Source: a phage
Sequence record: PZ445442.1
DNA length: 64,000 nt
Direction: 5' to 3' (one strand)
Each line of letters opens with the position of its first letter. Position 1 is the first letter of the stretch. A program made the translations under genes and the position numbers. The notes beneath the pieces were generated by a model. It saw only the letters and a list, made by a program, of their open reading frames with translations, ran no database searches and was not told the DNA's origin. This document shows positions 1,447 through 12,300 of this stretch, piece by piece.

Positions 1447-2133
1447 ATGGCAGAGATTAAGTCGGATGTTAACCACATCCACACTCTGCCAGATTTTGTT
1501 CAGGGAGGTCTTGACTACCTACCTGGAGATTTTCTGGCTGAGAAGGTTAATTTAGTCACATTCTTAACCGTATACCTTAAAAGGTTGGAGGATGTTGATA
1601 AGATGCTGGTAGGTTTGGCTGAAGGAAGATTGCTTAACAATGCCAGCGGAAGATACCTCGACGAAGTTGGTAATCAACTTGGTATTCTTAGGAATGGACT
1701 TTCAGATGCTGATTTTCGTGCCACACTAATTATTCAGCAGGCCGCAGCATCAAGGGGCGGGACTCGCGAAGATGTCATCTCCACCTTGCGACAATTGTTC
1801 GGAAGAGACAATTTCGATACGTGGAAAGGAGACAACTTCAGGTTTGACATAAATATTAGAAAAACTTGCTTTGACATATTGCAGTCTATCGATCAGATCT
1901 TAGATATGCTACCATTGCCTTGTCATTTGCGTCTTACAGAATCGCAAGGGCAAGCTTTTGGTTTTGAAGGAGACTCTACAGCTCTTGGCTTCGGATCAGT
2001 GTGGGAAGAAAACCAATTCGGAGTTGGTGGGCTGGCTACTTTGCTATATGTTCCTGACGTAAGACCTGATTGGGACACCACAACCATTTATTGTGAAAGT
2101 ATTACAGTAAACGCAACTAGACAGGAGGGTTAA
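1447..2133 (+). CDS. hypothetical structural protein (baseplate/tail module)
   Basis: 228-aa ORF tightly packed in the late operon, ATGA overlap with next gene. Confidence 0.5.
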   Translation: MAEIKSDVNHIHTLPDFVQGGLDYLPGDFLAEKVNLVTFLTVYLKRLEDVDKMLVGLAEGRLLNNASGRYLDEVGNQLGILRNGLSDADFRATLIIQQAAASRGGTREDVISTLRQLFGRDNFDTWKGDNFRFDINIRKTCFDILQSIDQILDMLPLPCHLRLTESQGQAFGFEGDSTALGFGSVWEENQFGVGGLATLLYVPDVRPDWDTTTIYCESITVNATRQEG

Positions 2134-4205
2134 TGGCAACAGCTGTTTTTAAACCTTACCGTGATTACTCTACAATGGCTGCACAGTTTCATTACCGAAC
2201 AGTTCAGGATACTGCCGTTCCTGGTAGAGATTATAATCATGTTGAGGGCGATGTAACTATCCCAATTGGGGCAACCAGTATTGAGATCCCAGTGGAAATT
2301 GTTGACAAATTACCCAACAGGTTACCAAGAAGCTTCTTTATGGAGTTTTCATCAAAATCTCAAGGGGTGATGATTGGGACACAAAGGGCGAAATGTACAA
2401 TAGTTTCAGATGAGAATCTTGACAGGATATCTTGGGATACTGTCGAGGAGAGAATGTTTCACCCAAGATATTGGGTTACAACTACTCAGCAGACTGAAAG
2501 TACTTGTATTGTTGCAGATAATAACTGTTGTATTAACCGTTTAGTGTCAAGAACATATGGAGGTATGGCTGGATGCATTTGGGAAACAGTTGACAAGTAT
2601 GACCATTTCGGTATTGGGTTTGATGATCACTATGAGATGAGAAACACCAAGCTTTGGTTCAGAATGTCAATAACCAACGCCAGCAACTTCTCCACTCCTG
2701 AAAAGATGATTATGACTGTAGACCTTGTTGATGGCACAATCATCTATGTTCCTTTAGCTCAATATGCTGTCAGCATCTCAGAGGATAAGAATGTTGCAGA
2801 AATTCATATTGATTTTGAGGACTGCGTCGGGATGGACCAGAACAACAACATGATGGGTGTTGATCCTCGGCAGGTGAGAAGGATTTTAATACCGCTCATG
2901 CCTAAAGACTGGGTAAGTAATAGCACAGACCCGAGAACGGAAAATGTAGAGTGTGAGTTGCGCCTAGATTTGCTTCAGCCAGACACAGGCTGGAAAATGA
3001 TGCAACTTAACAATATTCAGGTGAGAGAGCACGACGTTGGGATCTGCACCGCATATGACGATATGTGGAACGTATCTCCTTTAAGGGTGTTGAACAATAT
3101 CAAGCGTCTGGGCTATACCGGAACCATAAACCATTATGTTGGTATGAGTCATTATTATGACTACACATGGTCAGGAACCCAATGGTCTATAAACAGAACA
3201 GGAGCGCTAAACGCTGCAGCTTATAAATGGCATGATGATTTTATGTACAATGCCAAACGACATAACTTCGACGTTATGCAATCTGTAAGTTTTGAGCTTT
3301 TCAGCGATGCCTGCCCGTTGGAATGGACCCAAAGAGACTGGAACGATAACTACGCTAAAACAGGGTATACACCTTGTAGCTACCTCCTGTCTCCAACCAT
3401 TGAAGAGGGTATGAATTTCCTTACTGCAGTATTTAAGAATTTTGCATCAGCCGCTATGAGAAACAACCTGCCAGTGATTATGCAGGTTGGTGAACCGTGG
3501 TGGTGGTACAATACCGATACTCGTAAACCTTGTATTTATGATTACCCTACAAAACAGGCGTTTTATGATGAGACAGGCGAGTATGCATTAGATATTGGGA
3601 CTATTGACGATCCTAAAACTGGCGGTGTTTACGACAAGTATGTAGCATTTTGTCGTGGTAAGCTTGGCGCTCGTATTGCGGCTATTTCAAAGGCAATAAA
3701 GGCACACGCTGCATCAGCTCAGATGACAGCTTTGCTATTTTTCCCAACTATTATGGAAACCGAGCTTACGCAAAAGCTGAACCTTGCTGACCAATATAAA
3801 AAGGAAGCCGGAGCTCTTGATTTCTTCTGCACTGAGTGCTACGATTGGGTGATGCAGGGAGGTATTGAAAAGGCAAAAGAGTCTGTAAACATACCTATCG
3901 TTAAGTTAGGTTGGCAACCGTCTGAAATACAATACCTTGCAGGGTTCGTTCCTAGTAAAGAGCTTGCTCCGGTATATGGCTACGACCCAACTAGGAATTA
4001 CCAAGAATTTTTATGGAGATGTATTTGCGGAAACATGGCAACTATAGAGTATAGATACCCTGAGGTAAAACAGTATGTGTGGGCATACCCGCAAGTAATG
4101 TCTGACAGCATCACTGTTACCGCTAGAGATTCTACCGTGCTTCATATGGGGCAGGTTGCTCTGAAAGGGTATGTAGAAGATGTTGTCCCGCCAGACTTCT
4201 CATAA
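2133..4205 (+). CDS. hypothetical large structural protein (baseplate/tail)
   Basis: 690-aa ORF, translationally coupled to upstream gene, immediately upstream of tail fibre. Confidence 0.5.
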   Translation: MATAVFKPYRDYSTMAAQFHYRTVQDTAVPGRDYNHVEGDVTIPIGATSIEIPVEIVDKLPNRLPRSFFMEFSSKSQGVMIGTQRAKCTIVSDENLDRISWDTVEERMFHPRYWVTTTQQTESTCIVADNNCCINRLVSRTYGGMAGCIWETVDKYDHFGIGFDDHYEMRNTKLWFRMSITNASNFSTPEKMIMTVDLVDGTIIYVPLAQYAVSISEDKNVAEIHIDFEDCVGMDQNNNMMGVDPRQVRRILIPLMPKDWVSNSTDPRTENVECELRLDLLQPDTGWKMMQLNNIQVREHDVGICTAYDDMWNVSPLRVLNNIKRLGYTGTINHYVGMSHYYDYTWSGTQWSINRTGALNAAAYKWHDDFMYNAKRHNFDVMQSVSFELFSDACPLEWTQRDWNDNYAKTGYTPCSYLLSPTIEEGMNFLTAVFKNFASAAMRNNLPVIMQVGEPWWWYNTDTRKPCIYDYPTKQAFYDETGEYALDIGTIDDPKTGGVYDKYVAFCRGKLGARIAAISKAIKAHAASAQMTALLFFPTIMETELTQKLNLADQYKKEAGALDFFCTECYDWVMQGGIEKAKESVNIPIVKLGWQPSEIQYLAGFVPSKELAPVYGYDPTRNYQEFLWRCICGNMATIEYRYPEVKQYVWAYPQVMSDSITVTARDSTVLHMGQVALKGYVEDVVPPDFS

Positions 4206-4217
4206 TCAGGAGATAAA

Positions 4218-5258
4218 ATGTCAAAACCTAGTTTTCCATTAGAGATTTGGGCAGAGGAGGATCAGGTTCTGCCTAACACCCACAGACAGAACAGGCTACG
4301 CCCGATTGATGATTTGTGGAGAAAAGGTTGGGATCTTGGTCAAAAGCCCTCATGTGAAGAGCTTAACTATATTTTCAATATGCTCGGAACTTGGGCAAAA
4401 TACATTGCTGACGAGCAGATCCCCGCTCAAGAAGGCCGTTATCTGGTACGTGATAATAACTTGAGTGATCTTTTGAACATTCCTGTTGCCCGTAGAAACC
4501 TTGGGATTATTACTAAGGAAGAGGCAGACGACAGGTATGTAAAAGTTACAGGTGATACAATGACAGGCCCATTGGGTTTGCAACGTATCAACTTTAAAGC
4601 TGCCGAGACAGATAAGGCTTGGATAGAGACAACTGTTGGCCCGGATAAGACAACTCTCGACTTTGGGTTAAGTGATAATATTGGGTCGTTTGATGATGGT
4701 GGTACATCTACAGTAGATGCGTTTCGTTGGAGATTCCAGCCAACTCAGCCGGATATTAATCCAGAGTTCACTTTGATGTACCTTAACGCGATCACGGCTA
4801 ACCGTGCGCTGTTGAAAGTGGTAGGCAATGTTGAAGTTGTCGATAACATGAGGTGTAATAACCTTACTATCAGTAATACAGCAACATTCACCAACTGTAA
4901 TGTGGCTAGTCAGTTGACGGCTGGGTCAGTATATGTTAATGATGGTGCAAGTTGTGACAGTATGGTTGTAAGAAGCCAGCACTGTGTTGTCGGTAACAGA
5001 AATGTGGTGCGCTCCGTGAATGGAGTGACGGCTAACGGTAACGGTGATGTAACGATCACTATCCCTCAGACAGGTGTGCAAGACATCAGAATCGGTGCAA
5101 GACTTGTGGACGGCGTTTCTGAATCTCCAATCCGCAACGGCTACGTTGTCACAGGCTGGCATTTCGGTGACAAAAAAGAGATGCGTGGTTCAACCTACTG
5201 GGCAGGACCTTTACAAAAACTTGTAAATGGTCAATGGATCACTGTTAATTATGCATAG
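4218..5258 (+). CDS. tail fibre / receptor-binding protein, paralog 1
   Basis: 346 aa; N-terminus (PLEIWAEEDQVL..GWD) and C-terminus (LQKLVNGQWITVNYA) shared with 6270..7316; followed by Tfa-like chaperone; RBS AGGAGA. Confidence 0.6.
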   Translation: MSKPSFPLEIWAEEDQVLPNTHRQNRLRPIDDLWRKGWDLGQKPSCEELNYIFNMLGTWAKYIADEQIPAQEGRYLVRDNNLSDLLNIPVARRNLGIITKEEADDRYVKVTGDTMTGPLGLQRINFKAAETDKAWIETTVGPDKTTLDFGLSDNIGSFDDGGTSTVDAFRWRFQPTQPDINPEFTLMYLNAITANRALLKVVGNVEVVDNMRCNNLTISNTATFTNCNVASQLTAGSVYVNDGASCDSMVVRSQHCVVGNRNVVRSVNGVTANGNGDVTITIPQTGVQDIRIGARLVDGVSESPIRNGYVVTGWHFGDKKEMRGSTYWAGPLQKLVNGQWITVNYA

Positions 5259-5272
5259 ATCGGAGGACTAGC

Positions 5273-5857
5273 ATGAAAATACTTCAAGAGTTTAAACTTT
5301 ACCAACCGGGATCTGGCGAATACCACGCCAACAAGGAAACCAAGGAGCTGACCCCTCAAGAGGTTGAGGATTACACCGCATACACTGGGTATTTTTTACG
5401 TAATGATGATGGCGATTGGTATGTGCAGTCACGAACATTACGACAAGAAAATCCGGGTTGTATCTTCCTACTTGTTGACGAGAAGGGAATTCTTAAGACA
5501 TCTACAGAAGAACCTGATGCCTTATGGCCTGCTCCAGGTCTTCGTGTGGTTATCGCCAAAAAAGAAGAGGTACCAGAAAACATTATGCTTCACCACGACG
5601 CTTTGCGTTTAGTTGGTGATGAATTTGTCACAGATAATGAATTCTTTGTTCAACAGGCAGAGGGTGTCATAGAGACAGAACTTGCTTGGGCTACTGCTAG
5701 AATTGGTGCCTATCAAGACATGATTGACCTTGAATATGATCTTACTGATGACCAGAAACGTAACATCAGAGATTTGAAAATGTACAGGGTAAAACTTCTT
5801 GAAATAGATACATCTAAAGCCCCTGACATTTTCTTCCCGGAGCGACCTACCCTCTAA
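5273..5857 (+). CDS. tail fibre assembly chaperone (Tfa-like)
   Basis: 194 aa; C-terminal LLEIDTSKAPDIFFPERP resembles the DTS.APDI.WP motif of phage tail fibre assembly proteins; directly downstream of fibre gene. Confidence 0.55.
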   Translation: MKILQEFKLYQPGSGEYHANKETKELTPQEVEDYTAYTGYFLRNDDGDWYVQSRTLRQENPGCIFLLVDEKGILKTSTEEPDALWPAPGLRVVIAKKEEVPENIMLHHDALRLVGDEFVTDNEFFVQQAEGVIETELAWATARIGAYQDMIDLEYDLTDDQKRNIRDLKMYRVKLLEIDTSKAPDIFFPERPTL

Positions 5858-5868
5858 GAGGAGGTGTT

Positions 5869-6183
5869 GTGGAGTTGGATTTGGCGGCATTGTACGGTAT
5901 CTGCATGGGTACCGTTGTCCCGATCTGTGTATGGGCTTTCAACCAGTGGCACACCAAATGGAAAGGCATTTCCAAGAGGTTGGATGAACTGGAGAAAGAC
6001 CTCATCTTAGTGAAAAACAGTATGGTTACAAAAGATAAACTTGATTCCGTTATCGAGACCCGGTTAAGCAAGCTAGAGGCCGATATTAACGACCTTAAGC
6101 AGGATGTCAGGACAGATGTCTCCGGTATCCGAGCTGATGTACAAAAGATTTTGCACATGCTCGTAGAGCATAGTAAAAGGTAA
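5869..6183 (+). CDS. hypothetical membrane-anchored coiled-coil protein
   Basis: 104 aa; N-terminal hydrophobic segment then charged coiled-coil-like region; RBS AGGAGG. Confidence 0.4.
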   Translation: MELDLAALYGICMGTVVPICVWAFNQWHTKWKGISKRLDELEKDLILVKNSMVTKDKLDSVIETRLSKLEADINDLKQDVRTDVSGIRADVQKILHMLVEHSKR

Positions 6184-6192
6184 ACAAAGGTC

Positions 6193-6225
6193 AGAACGGA
6201 AAGGACTCCGTTCTTGCATTTTGTT
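6193..6225 (+). terminator. Rho-independent terminator
   Basis: Perfect 8-bp stem AGAACGGA/TCCGTTCT followed by T-rich tract, just after stop of 5869..6183. Confidence 0.55.
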
Positions 6226-6269
6226 CTCTAAAGTGTTAAAATAGTCCTAAGGAATTTTCTCAGGAGAAC

Positions 6270-7316
6270 GTGATGACTAAACCAGTTATCCCTCTTGATA
6301 TTTGGGCCAATCAGGATGTTGTGCTTGAAAATACGGGAGAGTTGAATAAGTCTCAACCAAAAAAAGAAGATAGATTGAAAGGTTGGGATATGACACAAAG
6401 AATGGCATGTGAAGTTGTTAACTTTGAACTTCACATGCTTTCTGCGTGGTTAAAGCATCTAACAGAAGATGTTGTCCCAGGATGGGATAATAGATTCTTA
6501 AGGGTCACTAATAATCTAGCAGACGTTCCAGACAAAGCTGCTGCACGTCAAGTTCTCAATGTATACTCGCCTGAAGAAATGGACGATCTGTATGTTGACA
6601 AGTCTGGAGACATAATGACTCAGACTCAAACTTTAGGTCTTCAAAGAATCGAGTTTGCATCTGCGTCAACAGACAATGCGGCAATATATACCACCATAAC
6701 TCCAGACAAGACGACGATGGATTTCTGGATTATGGACAACATCGGTGGTGCTGACGGCACAGACCTTGATGATCCTTCCCACCAAATAGACGGGTTCCGT
6801 TGGAGATTTCAACCTTCTGGTGGGCAGCCTGTGTTTTCGGCTATGAAGCTCAATGCTATAACTGCCAATCGTGCAAGACTGGCCATCCAAGGAAATCTTG
6901 AATGCAACGATGCAAAAAGTTCCTCTGCAAATGCCAATGCGGTCACGATACCAAGAGCCACTGTTAATGGACAACAATCCTGCGGAAGCGCTCAAATAGG
7001 TGGAAGAGTTGATTGTAACGATGAAACCGTCAGGGGCCAATATGCAACAGTTGGTGGAAGAAACGTGGTCCGCAGGGTAAATGGTAACAGCGCAGACAGT
7101 AGCGGTAACCTTACTATCCCTATTCCTAGCAGAGGGGTTGATGATGTAAGGATAGCAAACCGTTTTAAAACCACCTACAGAGAGTCAAGAGTCTACCCTG
7201 GACATGTGATGTGCTCTGGCAACTACGCTTATAAACACCCTTATCAAGGTGATTACTGGACAGGTGCTATCCAAAAACTTGTAAATGGTCAATGGATCAC
7301 TATATCTTATGCTTAA
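6270..7316 (+). CDS. tail fibre / receptor-binding protein, paralog 2
   Basis: 348 aa; conserved N-terminus (PLDIWANQDVVL..GWD), central FRWRFQP block and C-terminus IQKLVNGQWITISYA shared with 4218..5258. Confidence 0.6.
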   Translation: MMTKPVIPLDIWANQDVVLENTGELNKSQPKKEDRLKGWDMTQRMACEVVNFELHMLSAWLKHLTEDVVPGWDNRFLRVTNNLADVPDKAAARQVLNVYSPEEMDDLYVDKSGDIMTQTQTLGLQRIEFASASTDNAAIYTTITPDKTTMDFWIMDNIGGADGTDLDDPSHQIDGFRWRFQPSGGQPVFSAMKLNAITANRARLAIQGNLECNDAKSSSANANAVTIPRATVNGQQSCGSAQIGGRVDCNDETVRGQYATVGGRNVVRRVNGNSADSSGNLTIPIPSRGVDDVRIANRFKTTYRESRVYPGHVMCSGNYAYKHPYQGDYWTGAIQKLVNGQWITISYA

Positions 7317-7327
7317 AAAGAGGGTAA

Positions 7328-7594
7328 ATGAAACTAACTCAGTTTTTATGGGGACTGGTTGCGGCATCTGATGACCCTACGAAAGTGTCCCAATCTAAGC
7401 TATGGTCGAACATAGGCATGGCGGTGATGACTGGGGTGTTTATTCATATGGGGTATAATGATACGCTTCCTGAATGGTATGCGTGGATATACGCGCCTTC
7501 AGTAGCTTGCCCCCAGCTTATTAGCAAATTCATCTCGCTCCGGTGGGGTTGCCAGCACCCTGACCACGTTAAAAACGAAGAGCAAAAAGCTTAA
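7328..7594 (+). CDS. hypothetical small membrane protein
   Basis: 88 aa with hydrophobic segments; RBS-like AGAGGG upstream. Confidence 0.35.
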   Translation: MKLTQFLWGLVAASDDPTKVSQSKLWSNIGMAVMTGVFIHMGYNDTLPEWYAWIYAPSVACPQLISKFISLRWGCQHPDHVKNEEQKA

Positions 7595-7603
7595 GGAGAA
7601 ATC

Positions 7604-9349
7604 ATGGCGCAAGACATGACAAGCTTTGAGCAGGCGGTAGATCAAGTAATTGTTGATTCTGAACGTTTGCACCTGATTGTCAACGGTAACGCTGTGGATG
7701 AAGTTGTCGTAGAGGATGGGACCACCATCCCTACGGTACGAAAAGCCATGCTTGACACCCTTTATTTTAAAACGCCACCGATCCCTTGGGCGTATGGTGC
7801 ATCCACAACAGTTTTTAACCAGCTGTACGAGTTTAAAGGGGACACAGGCCCTCAGTGGTGGTACGCTCCCGCAGCATCAAAATCTAACCCGGTTAGAATG
7901 CCAGCAGATCCTTCACAATCTCCAAACTGGAGATTATATACCGATTCTGCAGTAATGGCAAAATACTACGCAAAACTTAACAGTCCGAGGTTTGAAGGTG
8001 ACCCGCGAGTACCTACGCCTCCAATGGACGACAAATCAGAGTCTATAGCAAACACAGAGTTTGTTGTTGACTATGTGGATAGCATATTTGAAGCCATGGA
8101 GGGAATGAAAGTTACTGTAGGGTCTTTGGTGGTAAAAGGTCTTACAGAACTTGCTAACACCATAGTTGGTGGCACACTCACCTTACATGGGCCTGTTAAT
8201 GGAGCAGATTCTACTGCACGCTTCAGGAACCTAATCCTCACGGCAAATACTTCTACACTTACTTTTGCGTGGAGTGATCCTAAGCATGCAGACTGGAGAA
8301 GCACAGAGCTGCAACCTTATGAAGTGTCCACCCACAGGGTTATAGCTGACACTATAACTTCTGGGAAACCAGTGGCTAATAATAACGATGTGCATTTTGA
8401 TGGTCTAGGTAATAACTTTTTTGACTACGTGTACATTCGTGGTAATGCCATGAAGGCAGCAACCGAACCGACATTGCAGGTAGATGGGACCACCAGGGTT
8501 AAGAACCTTGAGGTGACAGGTACTGTTACAGGGATAACCTACTCTGTCGATGGCACCATGATCTACCCTAGCTATATTGAAAGCACGGGGGACGCATTAA
8601 TAAATGGTGATTTAGAAGTTGGCGGATCTGTAGTTATTCGAGGTACAGCCTCTATCCAAAACATAGCTCTGAATACCTTAAGAGTCAATGAACGTGCAAC
8701 TTTTGAAGGAGAAGGACTTACAGCCAACAAAGGTGTAATTACCGAGCTGACAACCACCACTTTAACTGCAACAACTGCAAACTCTGAAAACTGCAACGTT
8801 ACCAGAAACTTGCAGGTAAATGGAGATGTTAGTTTAAACGCAGCAGGTACGGGCACCACCTACCTTCACAACCTTGAAATATCCGGCACAGTGACTGGGT
8901 GGCTGCCAGACTTCTCTAATGTCAACTTTGTTTGTAATGGCATTAACTCCAGTGGTAAGATAACTACCTCTCAAGAAATTGAGGCGGGTAAAACCATTAC
9001 TGCCCCTACTTTCCACGCAGGAAAGGTAGATTTTGATTTAGAGGAGGTTGACGCGTCCAGTGGGACATGGACACCCAACGGGCAGGCCAGCATGTATGTT
9101 GTCCACGCGAAAGGGGATTTTACAATAGGACAATGGCCTGGTACATCAGCGGAAGATAAACCTTATCCATTTACTGCAGTTATCTATGTCATTCAGGATG
9201 CTGTAGGTCACAACGTGACTTTGCACGATAAGTATGCTATCCTGTCGGCAACACCTGTTATTAACAACAAGGCTAACAGTGTTACCCTGCTGCAATTAAC
9301 ATATTGTGGTGTTGGTGATATCGTAGACGTAGTAATTGCACAACGTTAA
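7604..9349 (+). CDS. tail fibre / tailspike-like protein
   Basis: 581 aa, Thr/Gly/Asn/Val-rich repetitive beta-type sequence typical of fibre shafts; RBS AAGGAGA. Confidence 0.5.
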   Translation: MAQDMTSFEQAVDQVIVDSERLHLIVNGNAVDEVVVEDGTTIPTVRKAMLDTLYFKTPPIPWAYGASTTVFNQLYEFKGDTGPQWWYAPAASKSNPVRMPADPSQSPNWRLYTDSAVMAKYYAKLNSPRFEGDPRVPTPPMDDKSESIANTEFVVDYVDSIFEAMEGMKVTVGSLVVKGLTELANTIVGGTLTLHGPVNGADSTARFRNLILTANTSTLTFAWSDPKHADWRSTELQPYEVSTHRVIADTITSGKPVANNNDVHFDGLGNNFFDYVYIRGNAMKAATEPTLQVDGTTRVKNLEVTGTVTGITYSVDGTMIYPSYIESTGDALINGDLEVGGSVVIRGTASIQNIALNTLRVNERATFEGEGLTANKGVITELTTTTLTATTANSENCNVTRNLQVNGDVSLNAAGTGTTYLHNLEISGTVTGWLPDFSNVNFVCNGINSSGKITTSQEIEAGKTITAPTFHAGKVDFDLEEVDASSGTWTPNGQASMYVVHAKGDFTIGQWPGTSAEDKPYPFTAVIYVIQDAVGHNVTLHDKYAILSATPVINNKANSVTLLQLTYCGVGDIVDVVIAQR

Positions 9350-9356
9350 TATATCT

Positions 9357-9385
9357 AACCGCTCCTGACGGGGCGGTTTTCTTAT
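9357..9385 (+). terminator. Rho-independent terminator
   Basis: GC stem (AACCGCTCC..GGGGCGGTT) followed by TTTTCTT after stop of 7604..9349. Confidence 0.5.
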
Positions 9386-9397
9386 CTGGAGAACACA

Positions 9398-12300
9398 ATG
9401 CTTCCAATCCCTTTGCTAAAACTTGGTCGTCATTTCCTCGATAAGAGGGGTGGAATTAAGGAACTTGCTGTTCTGTCATACCCAATAGACAACAGTGATG
9501 GTACAAGCAACACAGTATCCTATGTAAATAGCTTAGCTATACTTTTTGATGATGGTCAACTTAATATCACGGGCTATAACAGGTTCGGAGAGTGCCGCAC
9601 TGGGGATCTTGACACGATAAACTATCCCAACGAGGCTGCCTGGAACGTTGATCATGTGTGGAGAGCAGACCGTGCGTTTGTGATCCGAACTTTTGATAAC
9701 CAGTTTTTCTACATCGGCTGCACTGCAGGGCTTATTGGGTCTGATGCTGCAGGCGGTAATGATGTTTGTGTAAGAGAGTGGACACCTCTTCCTGAACAGA
9801 TCGTTAAAGGATTGCACCTTGACACCCACCCAGAGCGCCTTATTGAGGTGATGGGTGGTATTAACAACACTGTCTGGGTTATTGCAGAGGCAGAAGGCAC
9901 TGGCATACTTAACCTGTATGGGTCTGGTAACAACACCTACGGATCTTTGCATGTAGATAAAAATCAGCATGCAACCCCTGTAAAGATTGGTGAGACATCG
10001 GAAAATCCTGAAACAGGCCCTTGGAAAAACCCAAGCATCAACTGCGAGGTGCATGACAACTCTGTTATTTTCGGTGGTCCTAGGGGTTTCTGGATTGCTG
10101 GATACGACTTTCTGAGAAATAACAGTAGAAACGACCTTGTTTGGCCTCCTGTGCAGATCACTCGTAACGATTTGAGGGGCATTCCTGCAGATGAGGAGTG
10201 GAAAGGGTTTATGTGTGGTCCTAACGGGGCAATAATTGCCACACAGAGGATGCATAGACCCGATGACCAGCAGCTTGTTAACGTATTCTACGGGCAAGAC
10301 GTTTGGGGAGATGACACATGGCGTTCCTTAAATATCACCTACACCCATGAGGTAATAATGGCTCGTGGGTACGGCACAAGTGGCATTTTCTTCAATAATG
10401 GCACTAAGCAGTATCGTGGATTCTCTCGCAACTTGTGTAATGATATTGGCGCACAATCTGCAAACAATAGCCCTAGGGCCAATTTTATCCACTATCAAGC
10501 TCTTGCTACAGCTAAATATGTTGAGCAACGCCTGCCAGTTAGCTGGACAGAGAGTGTTTATTTCCAAGGCATCCACAGGGAAGGTTTCTTAGGAACCTTT
10601 ACTGTTGTTAATGGTAAACTTTGGTGGTCAGGCATCCCAAGGGGGAGTTTTGCAGGCTCTAACAACCTGTTTGGCGGCAGACTTAATAGTCAGGGGTTCA
10701 CAGAGGTTCCTGAGAATTGGTATAAAAATGTCCCAGTAGACAGTTGGGGTGTTGATGATATTTTCGACGTTAACGGTGTTAGCAGCGTTAGCAATATTTA
10801 CATTGGTGACACGGTCAAGATGAAATTGAAGCCTCAGCCAGAAGGGGCTACGTTCATTATTGACAAGATTGAACTGGTAAATGCTGCAGGCACGGTTGTT
10901 ACAGATGCAAATTACCAATTCTCCACCAACTGGAACCACGGCGGGGCCAATGAAGTTGTTGTTACCCAGTATAACAGAAATGTTAACAGACGTGGCCTGT
11001 ACTCTGTAAAAATAACTTATCATGACAAGCATGGCACAGGCAGAACCCATACGACAAGGACTTTGAACTGGAACACCATAGTTCCTGCGTATCCGTCTAA
11101 CGGCAAGTGGCATACCGTTGGTAGAAACAAGCAGTTCCATGTTAACGATACTGTATACTTTGGGCTGAATGGTACTCAGCCTGCAGTAGAAGGTGATACA
11201 TCATATATGGTCCGACTCCACAGAATGGATGCTGGATCAGTCACTTACGATGTTACCCAAGAGATTTATGATCAGAGAAGAAATACCTACAACAACTTGG
11301 TGCAGACACAGGCCGTATGGGAGTTCAACCCTAACGGCAGAGGTGGTAAAATGTTGCAGGTTAACGAGCAAAACGGAACGTCGTTAACTGTCCACGAACA
11401 CCCAGACCCTTGGCCTGATCCTGGAAAACCTCACCCAGGCGCTCGTACGCTGAAAATTGTCAGCCATGATGTAGGATATTTCGGAATACGCTGGGAAGCT
11501 ACAGTAAGGTATGCCGACGGGACAACAAACAACATAGGGATTACACTTGGGGGCACCAGTGAGGATAACTCGCTGAAAATTGCCTACACTCCTAGAGGTA
11601 TTTCTATTGATAATATGGATGTTGTTCGCAACGGTTACGGGGATGTGAACATCAAAGTTACTCTTGGTGAACATCTTGGCGGGGAAAGGATCATCATGTA
11701 CGCCTTTGATCACGACCCACGCACTGACGGAACCTATGCAGACCAAGCGTGGAGCTACCTGATAAGCGCACCTGAGCCAAATACCAAAGAATTCTACTAC
11801 GGTATGAAACGGGATGTGTGCAAGAAAACAGGGACACATGACTGGATTGCAATCTGCGTTAAAGATGAACGTACCGCTTGGGACGAGCCTGTTAACAGAT
11901 GGTTCATAGGAATTCCCACTCGAAGTGATAAATACGTTGAAGAATATATTGTATGCATGGGCGGCACCAACCTCAACATGTGTTGGAACGAGGATGCAAA
12001 CAAATACTCTGATTATGATTATATGAGGGATTACTCTTGCAATCAATGGTTTAACCAAACCGGGTATGCTAATCGACAGTCAAGAGTAAACCCTGCAATC
12101 TTTACAGATACGCAGGTTTTCTTGACAAAACAGGCCAACGAGGTTCAGACCTTCAAGAACAAATACGACCCTAACAAGTGGTTTTATAACTGTTATGGCG
12201 CATTTTTCTGGGGGCCAGGGGAACTGCCTAACGGGGGATCTTGCTTCGAGGCTGCAACTTACGCCAGTGATTACATCATGGGGCAGGTTAAGAAGTATAA

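Follow-up and report, generated by a model that had tools for sequence, protein, structure and literature searches.

Paralogous short-tail-fibre genes with homogenised 3' ends beside a single Tfa gene in the Vequintavirus phage EmilHeitz

The rV5-like phages of Escherichia coli carry two paralogous genes for a short tail fibre (STF) together with one gene for a Tfa chaperone. Between them, Kropinski et al. 2013 (PMC3606486) and Maffei et al. 2021 (PMC8594841) described the pair of paralogs with its single Tfa gene, the relation to S and U of phage Mu and the idea of 'two LPS chemotypes' (LPS, lipopolysaccharide), dual receptor specificity having been hypothesised already in 2013 (PMC3606486). 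The later study reported that the loci are related to a single phi92-like locus, and ultimately to Mu GpS/GpU, and that the paralogs are without considerable allelic variation (PMC8594841). In the rV5 numbering (Table S3, PMC3606486) gp33 is the first fibre (STF1), gp32 the Tfa protein, gp31 a membrane protein of 104 amino acids (aa) and gp30 the second fibre (STF2). The same cassette is considered here in a phage DNA stretch of 64,000 nucleotides (nt) from sequence record PZ445442.1, referred to below as the window, in which positions 4000-9400 are 100% identical to Escherichia phage EmilHeitz (Bas49, MZ501062.1, genus Vequintavirus); more than 100 rV5-like genomes are 95-99% identical to this part of the window. 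The locus is the known, already published short-tail-fibre cassette that an rV5-like phage of E. coli carries, comprising two paralogs and one chaperone gene, and as an object it does not differ from rV5 gp33/gp32/gp30 or from the BASEL Vequintavirus locus, which have the same genes at about 98% identity. The best explanation overall, to which we would give a probability of roughly 60%, is that the Vequintavirus cassette consists of two ancient paralogs of one trimeric fibre, one Tfa gene of the Mu U type and two small membrane-protein genes. Its genes are the following.

4218-5258, + strand: STF1 (bas49_0035), ortholog of rV5 gp33, 346 aa, 'short tail fiber protein' in GenBank
5273-5857, + strand: Tfa chaperone (bas49_0036), rV5 gp32, 194 aa, 'tail fiber chaperone' in GenBank
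5869-6183, + strand: 104-aa protein (bas49_0037), hypothetical in GenBank, rV5 gp31, with one transmembrane (TM) segment and a coiled coil
6273-7316, + strand: STF2 (bas49_0038), rV5 gp30, 347 aa, 'short tail fiber protein' in GenBank
7328-7594, + strand: 88-aa membrane protein (bas49_0039), rV5 gp29, matching phrog_1322 (E 3e-32)

The same fibre occurs as a single copy in phi92 (gp147), Av-05 and PVP-SE1; Av-05 and phi92 each have one STF gene, one Tfa gene and a small TM/coiled-coil gene. In phi92 the genes for gp147 (fibre III), gp148 (Tfa) and gp149 follow the wedge genes in the order of fibre, Tfa and small TM/coiled-coil protein that is seen here, and the 2026 structure of that phage places gp147 as the downward-pointing 'fibre III' on the wedge (PMC13450770). 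Phi92 differs in that its one fibre copy is 23-28% identical to those of EmilHeitz and has a tip of the STF1 type. The STF of phiTE is homologous over about 90 N-terminal residues and ends in a related PIQKKVNGVW, and the model of the phiTE structure (9CUY/9MJN) has its residues 3-92 forming a globular joint at Wedge 1; however, this fibre is 554 aa long, contains a long coiled coil and Ig-like domains and is encoded in a single copy, and phiTE is flagellotropic. The S/U and S'/U' pairs of the Mu G segment and S of P1 (5YVQ, 8JU3) share with the present fibres the homology of shaft and tip and a Caudo_TAP-type Tfa, and Mu carries two alternative fibre versions per genome. The Tfa of Mu is needed for trimerisation of its fibre, to whose distal end it binds, and it stays on the virion (North et al. 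2019). In Mu, however, the versions are switched by DNA inversion, the N-terminal part of S is common to both and each version has its own chaperone, whereas STF1 and STF2 lie on one strand, share one chaperone gene and have most of their stable differences in the N-terminal half. A Mu-like invertible segment was rejected for EmilHeitz, positions 4000-7700 showing only chance-level inverted repeats (14-18 nt, 78-86% complementary). Finally, T4 gp12 is comparable in role by analogy, as a baseplate-mounted fibre binding the LPS core, and C-terminal allelic modules of gp12 are described in the T-even literature; it differs in requiring gp57A instead of Tfa and in being folded under the baseplate. 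The rV5 authors reported an HHpred similarity of the fibre to 1PDI (PMC3606486), but this gp12 match was not reproduced here, no T4 gp12 chain being present among the phmmer, profile or Foldseek matches in the Protein Data Bank (PDB).

An original prediction, made from the letters of the window, had recognised a pair of duplicated tail-fibre genes with a common FRWRFQP block and a nearly identical end, and in this it was correct. There are two same-strand open reading frames, of 346 aa (4218-5258) and of 347 or 348 aa depending on the start codon of the second; both products match phrog_4465 across profile positions 1-342 of 342 (E 5e-171 for STF1 and 6e-166 for STF2) and they align with each other over their full length at 43% identity (BLASTP, E 1e-95), the protein alignment showing the FRWRFQP block in both and the ending QKLVNGQWIT(V/I)(N/S)YA. 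The start of the second gene had been placed at GTG 6270, and is better placed at ATG 6273: this is the GenBank start, it aligns with the sole ATG in a sister lineage, and the ribosome-binding site AGGAG at 6262-6266 lies too near to GTG 6270. The prediction had further seen conserved ends around a divergent middle, and read this as the signature of receptor-binding-domain exchange. Sliding-window comparison gave a different picture, in which stretches of high and of low identity follow one another in turn and the longest of the conserved ones lies in the centre.

STF1 residues 1-25: 56% identity to STF2
STF1 residues 26-95: about 30% identity to STF2
STF1 residues 100-205: about 60% identity to STF2, the longest conserved block
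STF1 residues 215-245: about 22% identity to STF2
STF1 residues 250-285: about 55% identity to STF2
STF1 tip (residues 292-332): about 25% identity to STF2
STF1 last 24 residues: 62% identity to STF2

Third codon positions of the two genes are saturated (about 15-45% identical) except in the last 24 codons, where 71% are identical. Because the proteins are homologous throughout, and because synonymous sites are saturated everywhere except in the final 30 nt or so, STF1 and STF2 are taken to be old paralogs and not the products of a recent domain exchange; a swapped-in middle is not what the alignment contains. The observation behind the original prediction is thus real, if partly mis-described, and its interpretation rediscovers the published idea of dual specificity, which is plausible for this phage.

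Protein and contig searches recovered two diverged uncultivated lineages, termed B and C (lineage A being that of EmilHeitz), in which exactly the same gene order is found: STF1, Tfa, 104-aa protein, STF2, small membrane protein and fibre. Compared with EmilHeitz, STF1 and STF2 are 87% and 78% identical respectively in lineage B, and 72% and about 50% identical in lineage C. Neither lineage has a cultivated representative in the phage collection, and STF2 of lineage C had no match at 60% identity or above among the collected phage genomes. Since the two-copy order is present in lineages A, B and C, the duplication must be older than their split. The ratio of non-synonymous to synonymous substitution rates (dN/dS) is 0.02-0.03 for STF1 and 0.05-0.07 for STF2, at dS of 0.25-0.75, so that both copies are under strong purifying selection and neither is a pseudogene; the proviso attached to the original prediction, that one copy might prove to be such, is answered by these values of 0.02-0.07. 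The Tfa gene has a similar dN/dS of 0.03-0.07.

These figures also bear on the possibility that STF2 is redundant, in decay or non-structural, and absent from virions. It has no adjoining chaperone gene, its dN is about twice that of STF1, relatives with a single copy are viable, and STF2 is absent from the mass spectrometry (MS) table of rV5, as far as the accessible part of that source goes; the last point is uninformative, because STF1 is equally absent. On the other hand, an unbroken STF2 frame is present in more than 110 GenBank genomes (95% identity or above) and in lineages B and C, its dN/dS stands at 0.05-0.07, and it is preceded by a good ribosome-binding site and a conserved promoter-like motif. 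On the strength of dN/dS and conservation a decaying STF2 copy was rejected, and this explanation as a whole can be given hardly any credence.

The relation of the pair to known fibres was examined at the level of sequence, profile and fold. In phmmer searches of the PDB, residues 1-106 of STF1 matched residues 1-108 of the phiTE STF (9cuy_c, E 2.4e-19) and residues 286-343 matched residues 440-501 of Mu S (5yvq, E 3e-6); residues 1-83 of STF2 likewise matched the N-terminus of the phiTE STF (9cuy, E 2e-8), while STF2 alone gave no phmmer match to Mu S in the PDB reaching E <= 1. A family profile built on 36 members matched the phiTE STF (3.6e-35), Mu S (5.5e-14, in stretches of shaft and tip) and P1 S (5e-6), and tblastn matched STF2 to phi92 gp147 over 99% of its length. 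With Foldseek against the PDB the sole significant match was Mu S (5yvq_A), for both STF1 (E 6.6e-7) and STF2 (E 2.6e-7). The family alignment resolves the protein into five parts, namely a conserved anchor (1-100), then shaft and variable insert, then an invariant collar with the pattern VGGRNVVRxVNGxxADxNGN ... D-x-R, and lastly a tip, hypervariable and about 40 residues long, after which the protein ends with a conserved P(I/L)QKLVNGxW. In EmilHeitz these parts lie as follows.

STF1: anchor or joint, about residues 1-100 (nt 4218-4517); collar, about residues 251-291; tip, residues 292-332 (nt 5091-5213); then the C-terminal strand
STF2: the same domain order, with the anchor at nt 6273-6572 and the tip at residues 294-333 (nt 7152-7271)

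Between the collar and the C-terminal motif the family alignment contains at least six unrelated versions of the tip. The protein family is in this sense as modular as had been predicted and, judged from the alignment, its exchangeable unit is the tip of some 40 residues between the invariant collar and the QKLVNGxW motif. The sequence PIQKLVNGQW(V/I)T was also seen to terminate unrelated-looking fibre reading frames on two IMG/VR contigs, L008 (5143, - strand) and L016 (11193, + strand), one such IMG/VR frame being 598 aa long; its occurrence on unrelated-looking fibres makes the terminal strand look like a widely shared fibre-end module.

Modularity of the family speaks for the view that conserved ends frame a swapped-in centre and that the duplication serves to give the phage two receptor specificities. 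Other phage groups do have isolated STF matches, N-terminal or C-terminal, the two tips are only 25% identical here, and the same suggestion was made by Kropinski et al. in 2013 (PMC3606486). Nevertheless, residues 100-205, where a foreign centre would be sought, are the best-conserved long block and hold no foreign insert; homology is continuous and synonymous saturation uniform; neither tblastn nor the family alignment revealed the STF2 tip of lineages A and B in any other phage fibre; and, as described below, the paralogs of lineage C share a tip type and no fixed difference between paralogs falls in the tip. Such an exchange is therefore considered an unlikely origin for the pair.

To locate what separates the copies stably, a fixed paralog site was defined as one that has a single residue throughout the seven STF1 sequences and another throughout the seven STF2 sequences. 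In STF1 numbering, 13 such sites fall in the anchor (1-100), eight in the shaft (101-205), one in the insert (206-250) and none in the collar, tip and C-terminus; all 22 precede residue 218, and 21 of the 22 precede residue 206. Examples, given as STF1/STF2, are W135/A, E137/Y, F158/A and L198/R. From this distribution it follows that the N-terminal two-thirds hold the stable identity of each paralog; by analogy with the phiTE structure, this would be the part that mounts on the baseplate. All family-invariant residues of the N-terminal joint are kept in both STF1 and STF2.

It is tempting to see in this pattern a structural division of labour, in which the two fibres occupy different mounting positions, form mixed trimers or are interspersed on one set of six wedge sites, with their receptor-binding ends kept alike. 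The confinement of all 22 fixed differences to the region before residue 218 would fit such an arrangement, as would the retention of the joint residues in both copies, the single chaperone gene per genome and the homogenisation of the 3' ends between copies, extending to the whole tip in lineage C, that is described below. It is perhaps relevant that in the cryo-electron microscopy (cryo-EM) of Bas49 reported in the RBPseg paper (baseplate data EMD-51868), three fibre densities were seen near the baseplate, against nine annotated fibre genes, and that one of these, the only one of the STF class, has a Mu-like C-terminus. Against it, a second fibre has no known docking site, heterotrimeric phage fibres of this family are, to our knowledge, undocumented, and in lineages A and B the tips differ and are conserved as such, an argument that each tip has its own importance there. 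The arrangement is regarded as possible but doubtful.

A second process is evident at the opposite end of the genes. In EmilHeitz a tract of 30 nt at 5214-5243 (+ strand) of STF1, encoding QKLVNGQWIT, is identical to 7272-7301 (+ strand) of STF2; no exact match of this length between the two genes is expected by chance. The tract makes up the core of direct repeat D1 (62 nt, 5196-5257 and 7254-7315; 84% identity), the longest direct repeat of the region. Where the two proteins have the same residue, their codons also agree at 12 of 14 positions in the tail, compared with 39 of 130 outside it (Fisher p 7e-5). In lineage B both paralogs carry three synonymous changes within the tract (CTG, GTC and CAG) and differ from each other there at only 1 nt; in other genomes of lineage A the two tracts differ at 0, 2 or 4 positions; in lineage C they differ at 6-8 synonymous sites, which are stably paralog-specific. 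In lineage C it is the tip that has been homogenised. There STF2 carries a tip of the STF1 type, which differs from that of the resident STF1 at 13-29 of 120 nt, from the lineage A STF1 tip at about 50 of 120 and from the lineage A STF2 tip at about 72 of 120, while the collar and the last 15 codons remain paralog-specific.

As the mark of gene conversion we took a bounded tract within which paralogs of one genome are more alike than orthologs of different genomes, at synonymous sites, and direct comparison found this pattern. The 3' ends have been repeatedly homogenised by non-allelic recombination (gene conversion), over 30 nt here and over the whole tip in lineage C. The documented exchange is accordingly one between the two paralogs themselves, and the pattern in lineage C shows the tip to be a discrete cassette moving between them. 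In the rV5 and BASEL Vequintavirus papers we found neither the 3' gene conversion and the homogenised tips of the sister lineages nor the block-wise map of conservation and the confinement of fixed differences to the N-terminal part.

The 30-nt tract might instead be a functional nucleotide element, such as a signal in the RNA or a codon-encoded pause during co-translational binding of the chaperone; in favour of this is its place, the same in both genes and just before the stop codon and the ribosome-binding site of the next gene. Yet lineages A and B differ at three synonymous sites of the tract and still match within each genome, the tracts of two diverged lineage A genomes (L010 and L015) differ at 2 and 4 positions respectively, and the 6-8 synonymous differences of lineage C leave no universal constraint. 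Since the changes in lineage B are lineage-specific, synonymous and shared by both of its paralogs, they point to gene conversion and not to a fixed nucleotide signal, which is judged very improbable.

The Tfa gene itself is as predicted. The product of 5273-5857, which follows the first fibre gene, belongs to Caudo_TAP (PF02413, E 8.4e-12) and phrog_136 (E 2e-36), and has a variable N-terminal domain (residues 1-120) and a conserved C-terminal Caudo_TAP domain (residues 121-192). The assignment to the family rests on Pfam and PHROGs, because phmmer against the PDB gave no match of Tfa to Mu U. In every Vequintavirus record among the tblastn matches listed there is one Tfa gene per record and, as the original prediction stated, only the first fibre gene has a Tfa gene adjoining it, the gene after STF2 encoding the 88-aa membrane protein.

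Two old paralogs of one trimeric fibre with a single Tfa gene could be put to use as follows. Both fibres would be made late in infection, STF2 perhaps from a late promoter of its own together with the phiTE-type fibre gene downstream. Each would dock by its homologous N-terminal joint on the periphery of the wedge, as the phiTE structure suggests, and the single Tfa would trimerise both from the C-terminal end; that STF2 uses Tfa is purely our inference. Because one Tfa would then serve both fibres, the shared C-terminal segment would tolerate and keep homogenisation. On the baseplate both fibres would point downward with their tips binding the LPS core, and in EmilHeitz and lineage B the differing tips (25% identity) may accept different core variants.

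Dual specificity is thus plausible for EmilHeitz, since its tips are only 25% identical and this difference has been kept in both lineage A and lineage B. As the conserved reason for having two copies it fails, because in lineage C the tips are of the same type, so that both fibres presumably bind the same thing there, and because the fixed differences are N-terminal. The conserved reason is more likely to be how or where the N-terminal half is mounted. The copies may share the six sites, mix in trimers, or include one that sits at an unresolved position. A more specific proposal, put forward only tentatively, is that STF1 and STF2 are non-interchangeable structural partners, mounted at different positions or mixed within one trimer or one ring and distinguished by their N-terminal anchor and shaft, recurrent conversion keeping their C-terminal ends matched to the single Tfa and, in some lineages, to the same receptor.

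Several observations weigh against the scheme of two virion fibres served by one Tfa. Documentation of STF1 and STF2 as separate virion components was not found in the literature: the text of the rV5 paper reports gp30, gp32 and gp33 as detected, but MS Table S5 (19 loci) does not have them in the part of the source that is accessible (PMC3606486). The STF-class density of Bas49 is single and, at 7-9 Å, cannot separate the paralogs. A canonical wedge has one fibre-docking subunit, which leaves only six sites for two fibres. At the place where Mu Tfa binds its fibre, the STF2 tip is only 25% identical to that of STF1, which counts against a shared Tfa. The outer-core Glc I receptor in LPS is known at the level of the phage and not of the individual fibre. 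Models of the AlphaFold2 monomers were poor (mean predicted local distance difference test, pLDDT, 60.6 and 61.7; predicted template-modelling score, pTM, about 0.3), as is expected since the fibres are trimeric; these models served the Foldseek check alone, and domain-level structural claims were not drawn from them. Finally, the core of the late promoter that is predicted in front of STF2 is not enriched in the window, with 9 matches against 6.4 expected.

Six diagnostic peptides had zero matches in the rV5 supplements (PMC3606486); the 'proteomics' paper on an O177 phage is purely in silico, and the MS data on Septuagintavirus concern another genus. Paralog-specific peptides are DNNLSDLLNIPVAR and LVDGVSESPIR for STF1 and VTNNLADVPDK and VYPGHVMCSGNYAYK for STF2, with LYQPGSGEYHANK for Tfa. 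The rV5 relative LL12 needs WaaC, WaaF and WaaG, corresponding to the Glc I region of the LPS outer core.

The features that surround the five genes are the following.

122-1435: Wedge 2 homolog, matching phiTE Wedge 2 and phi92 gp145
1447-2133, + strand: Wedge 1 homolog (bas49_0033), matching 9mjn_dh (E 6e-67) and phi92 gp146 (E 2.6e-23)
6193-6214, + strand: hairpin followed by TTGCATTTTGTT, from pattern scan and fold energy
6221-6257, + strand: late-promoter-like motif, identical to rV5 'P030'
7604-9349, + strand: 581-aa fibre protein, 9cuy_g homolog, last gene of the putative STF2 transcription unit
9357-9378, + strand: strong intrinsic terminator, rV5 t028

Between the two fibre genes an intrinsic terminator had been predicted. 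A hairpin is indeed present at 6193-6214, found by pattern scan, with a stem of 8-9 bp, four G-C pairs and an interrupted U-tail, UUGCAUUUUGUU, but as a terminator it is weak or leaky at best. Its fold reaches -17.5 kcal/mol (z -3.4) in EmilHeitz, is weak in lineage B (-6) and is not significant in lineage C, where it is not kept; TTGCATTTT after the hairpin is conserved across lineages. The hairpin is also absent from the terminator list of rV5, which was obtained with ARNold and MFOLD (PMC3606486). Directly after it, Table S4 of the rV5 paper places the putative late promoter P030, whose string TTGTTCTCTAAAGTGTTAAAATAGTCCTAAGGAATTT is that of window positions 6221-6257 (PMC3606486). The P030 core, GTGTTAAAATA, lies at 6233-6243, and lineages A, B and C all keep a core GTG[CT]TAAAATA between diverging flanks. 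P030 remains a prediction, because the motif is short and not enriched in the window; it may give STF2 a late transcript start of its own, and the 581-aa fibre gene may belong to the same putative late transcription unit. The terminator at 9357-9378 has a 9-bp stem with six G-C pairs and a T-run (-14.5 kcal/mol, z -4.3) and is t028 of rV5 Table S4.

STF2 is flanked by two small membrane-protein genes, of 104 aa and 88 aa. The 104-aa product belongs to phrog_5345 (E 1e-48), of unknown function, and can be aligned with Av05_00102 and phi92 gp149; this TM and coiled-coil gene always stands after Tfa in Vequintavirus, in Av-05 and in phi92 (gp149), and rV5 Table S3 calls gp31 a 'membrane protein, 1 TMD' (PMC3606486). 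The 88-aa protein, which is kept after STF2, has the same amino-acid sequence in the diverged lineage A genomes L010 and L015. In Av-05 a gene for a 157-aa multi-TM membrane protein occupies the place of STF2, followed by a homolog of the 88-aa protein. The product of 7604-9349 matches 9cuy_g, a 'Putative tail fiber protein' of the phiTE baseplate (E 2.5e-77), the best-scoring match covering an N-terminal stretch of 318 residues (residues 8-325) of the 581-aa protein; the gene is annotated 'lateral tail fiber protein with glycosidase domain', and its orthologs carry the Pfam domains Phage_phiTE_241_N/C.

The STF genes lie within a block of baseplate-wedge and fibre genes, the wedge homologs being just upstream, in the order also found in Av-05 and phi92. 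The GenBank label of bas49_0033 (1447-2133) is 'putative tail terminator protein', and the matches make its product a baseplate wedge subunit. The stoichiometry of the phi92 wedge is given inconsistently in its source, as one gp145 and two gp146 in the text and as gp145-i, gp145-o and gp146 in the legend (PMC13450770); by homology gp145 is phiTE Wedge 2, present there in two copies, and gp146 is Wedge 1, present in one, which bears on the question of which subunit holds the short fibre. Immediately upstream of STF1, positions 2133-4205 encode a 690-aa protein with Calx-beta, NCTSP_N and TIM-barrel_NCTSP domains (E 5.5e-80); for Vequintavirus and for the phi92-like phages the literature links this fibre, an N4 gp65-like deacetylase, to the NGR glycan receptor. 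Between 16 and 21 of the GenBank records matching 4000-9400 (MG0656xx) are titled 'Campylobacter phage', with Campylobacter jejuni as host; the ones listed share about 98-99% identity with Vequintavirus genomes of E. coli, and the host labels look doubtful.

Phages of the rV5 type are common candidates for therapy and for the biocontrol of E. coli O157, and have about nine fibre genes, most of them without an assigned role. The basic picture of this cassette was published in 2013 and 2021 and is unchanged by the details that are new here, the 3' gene conversion and the N-terminal location of the fixed differences. The conversion tract and the boundaries of collar and C-terminus mark natural cut points for tip swaps in this family of fibres, and the engineering of host range would be guided by knowing whether the two fibres are alternatives in receptor binding or partners in architecture. 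If the two are indeed non-interchangeable structural partners, the fibre duplication would have been kept for the architecture of the baseplate rather than for host range.

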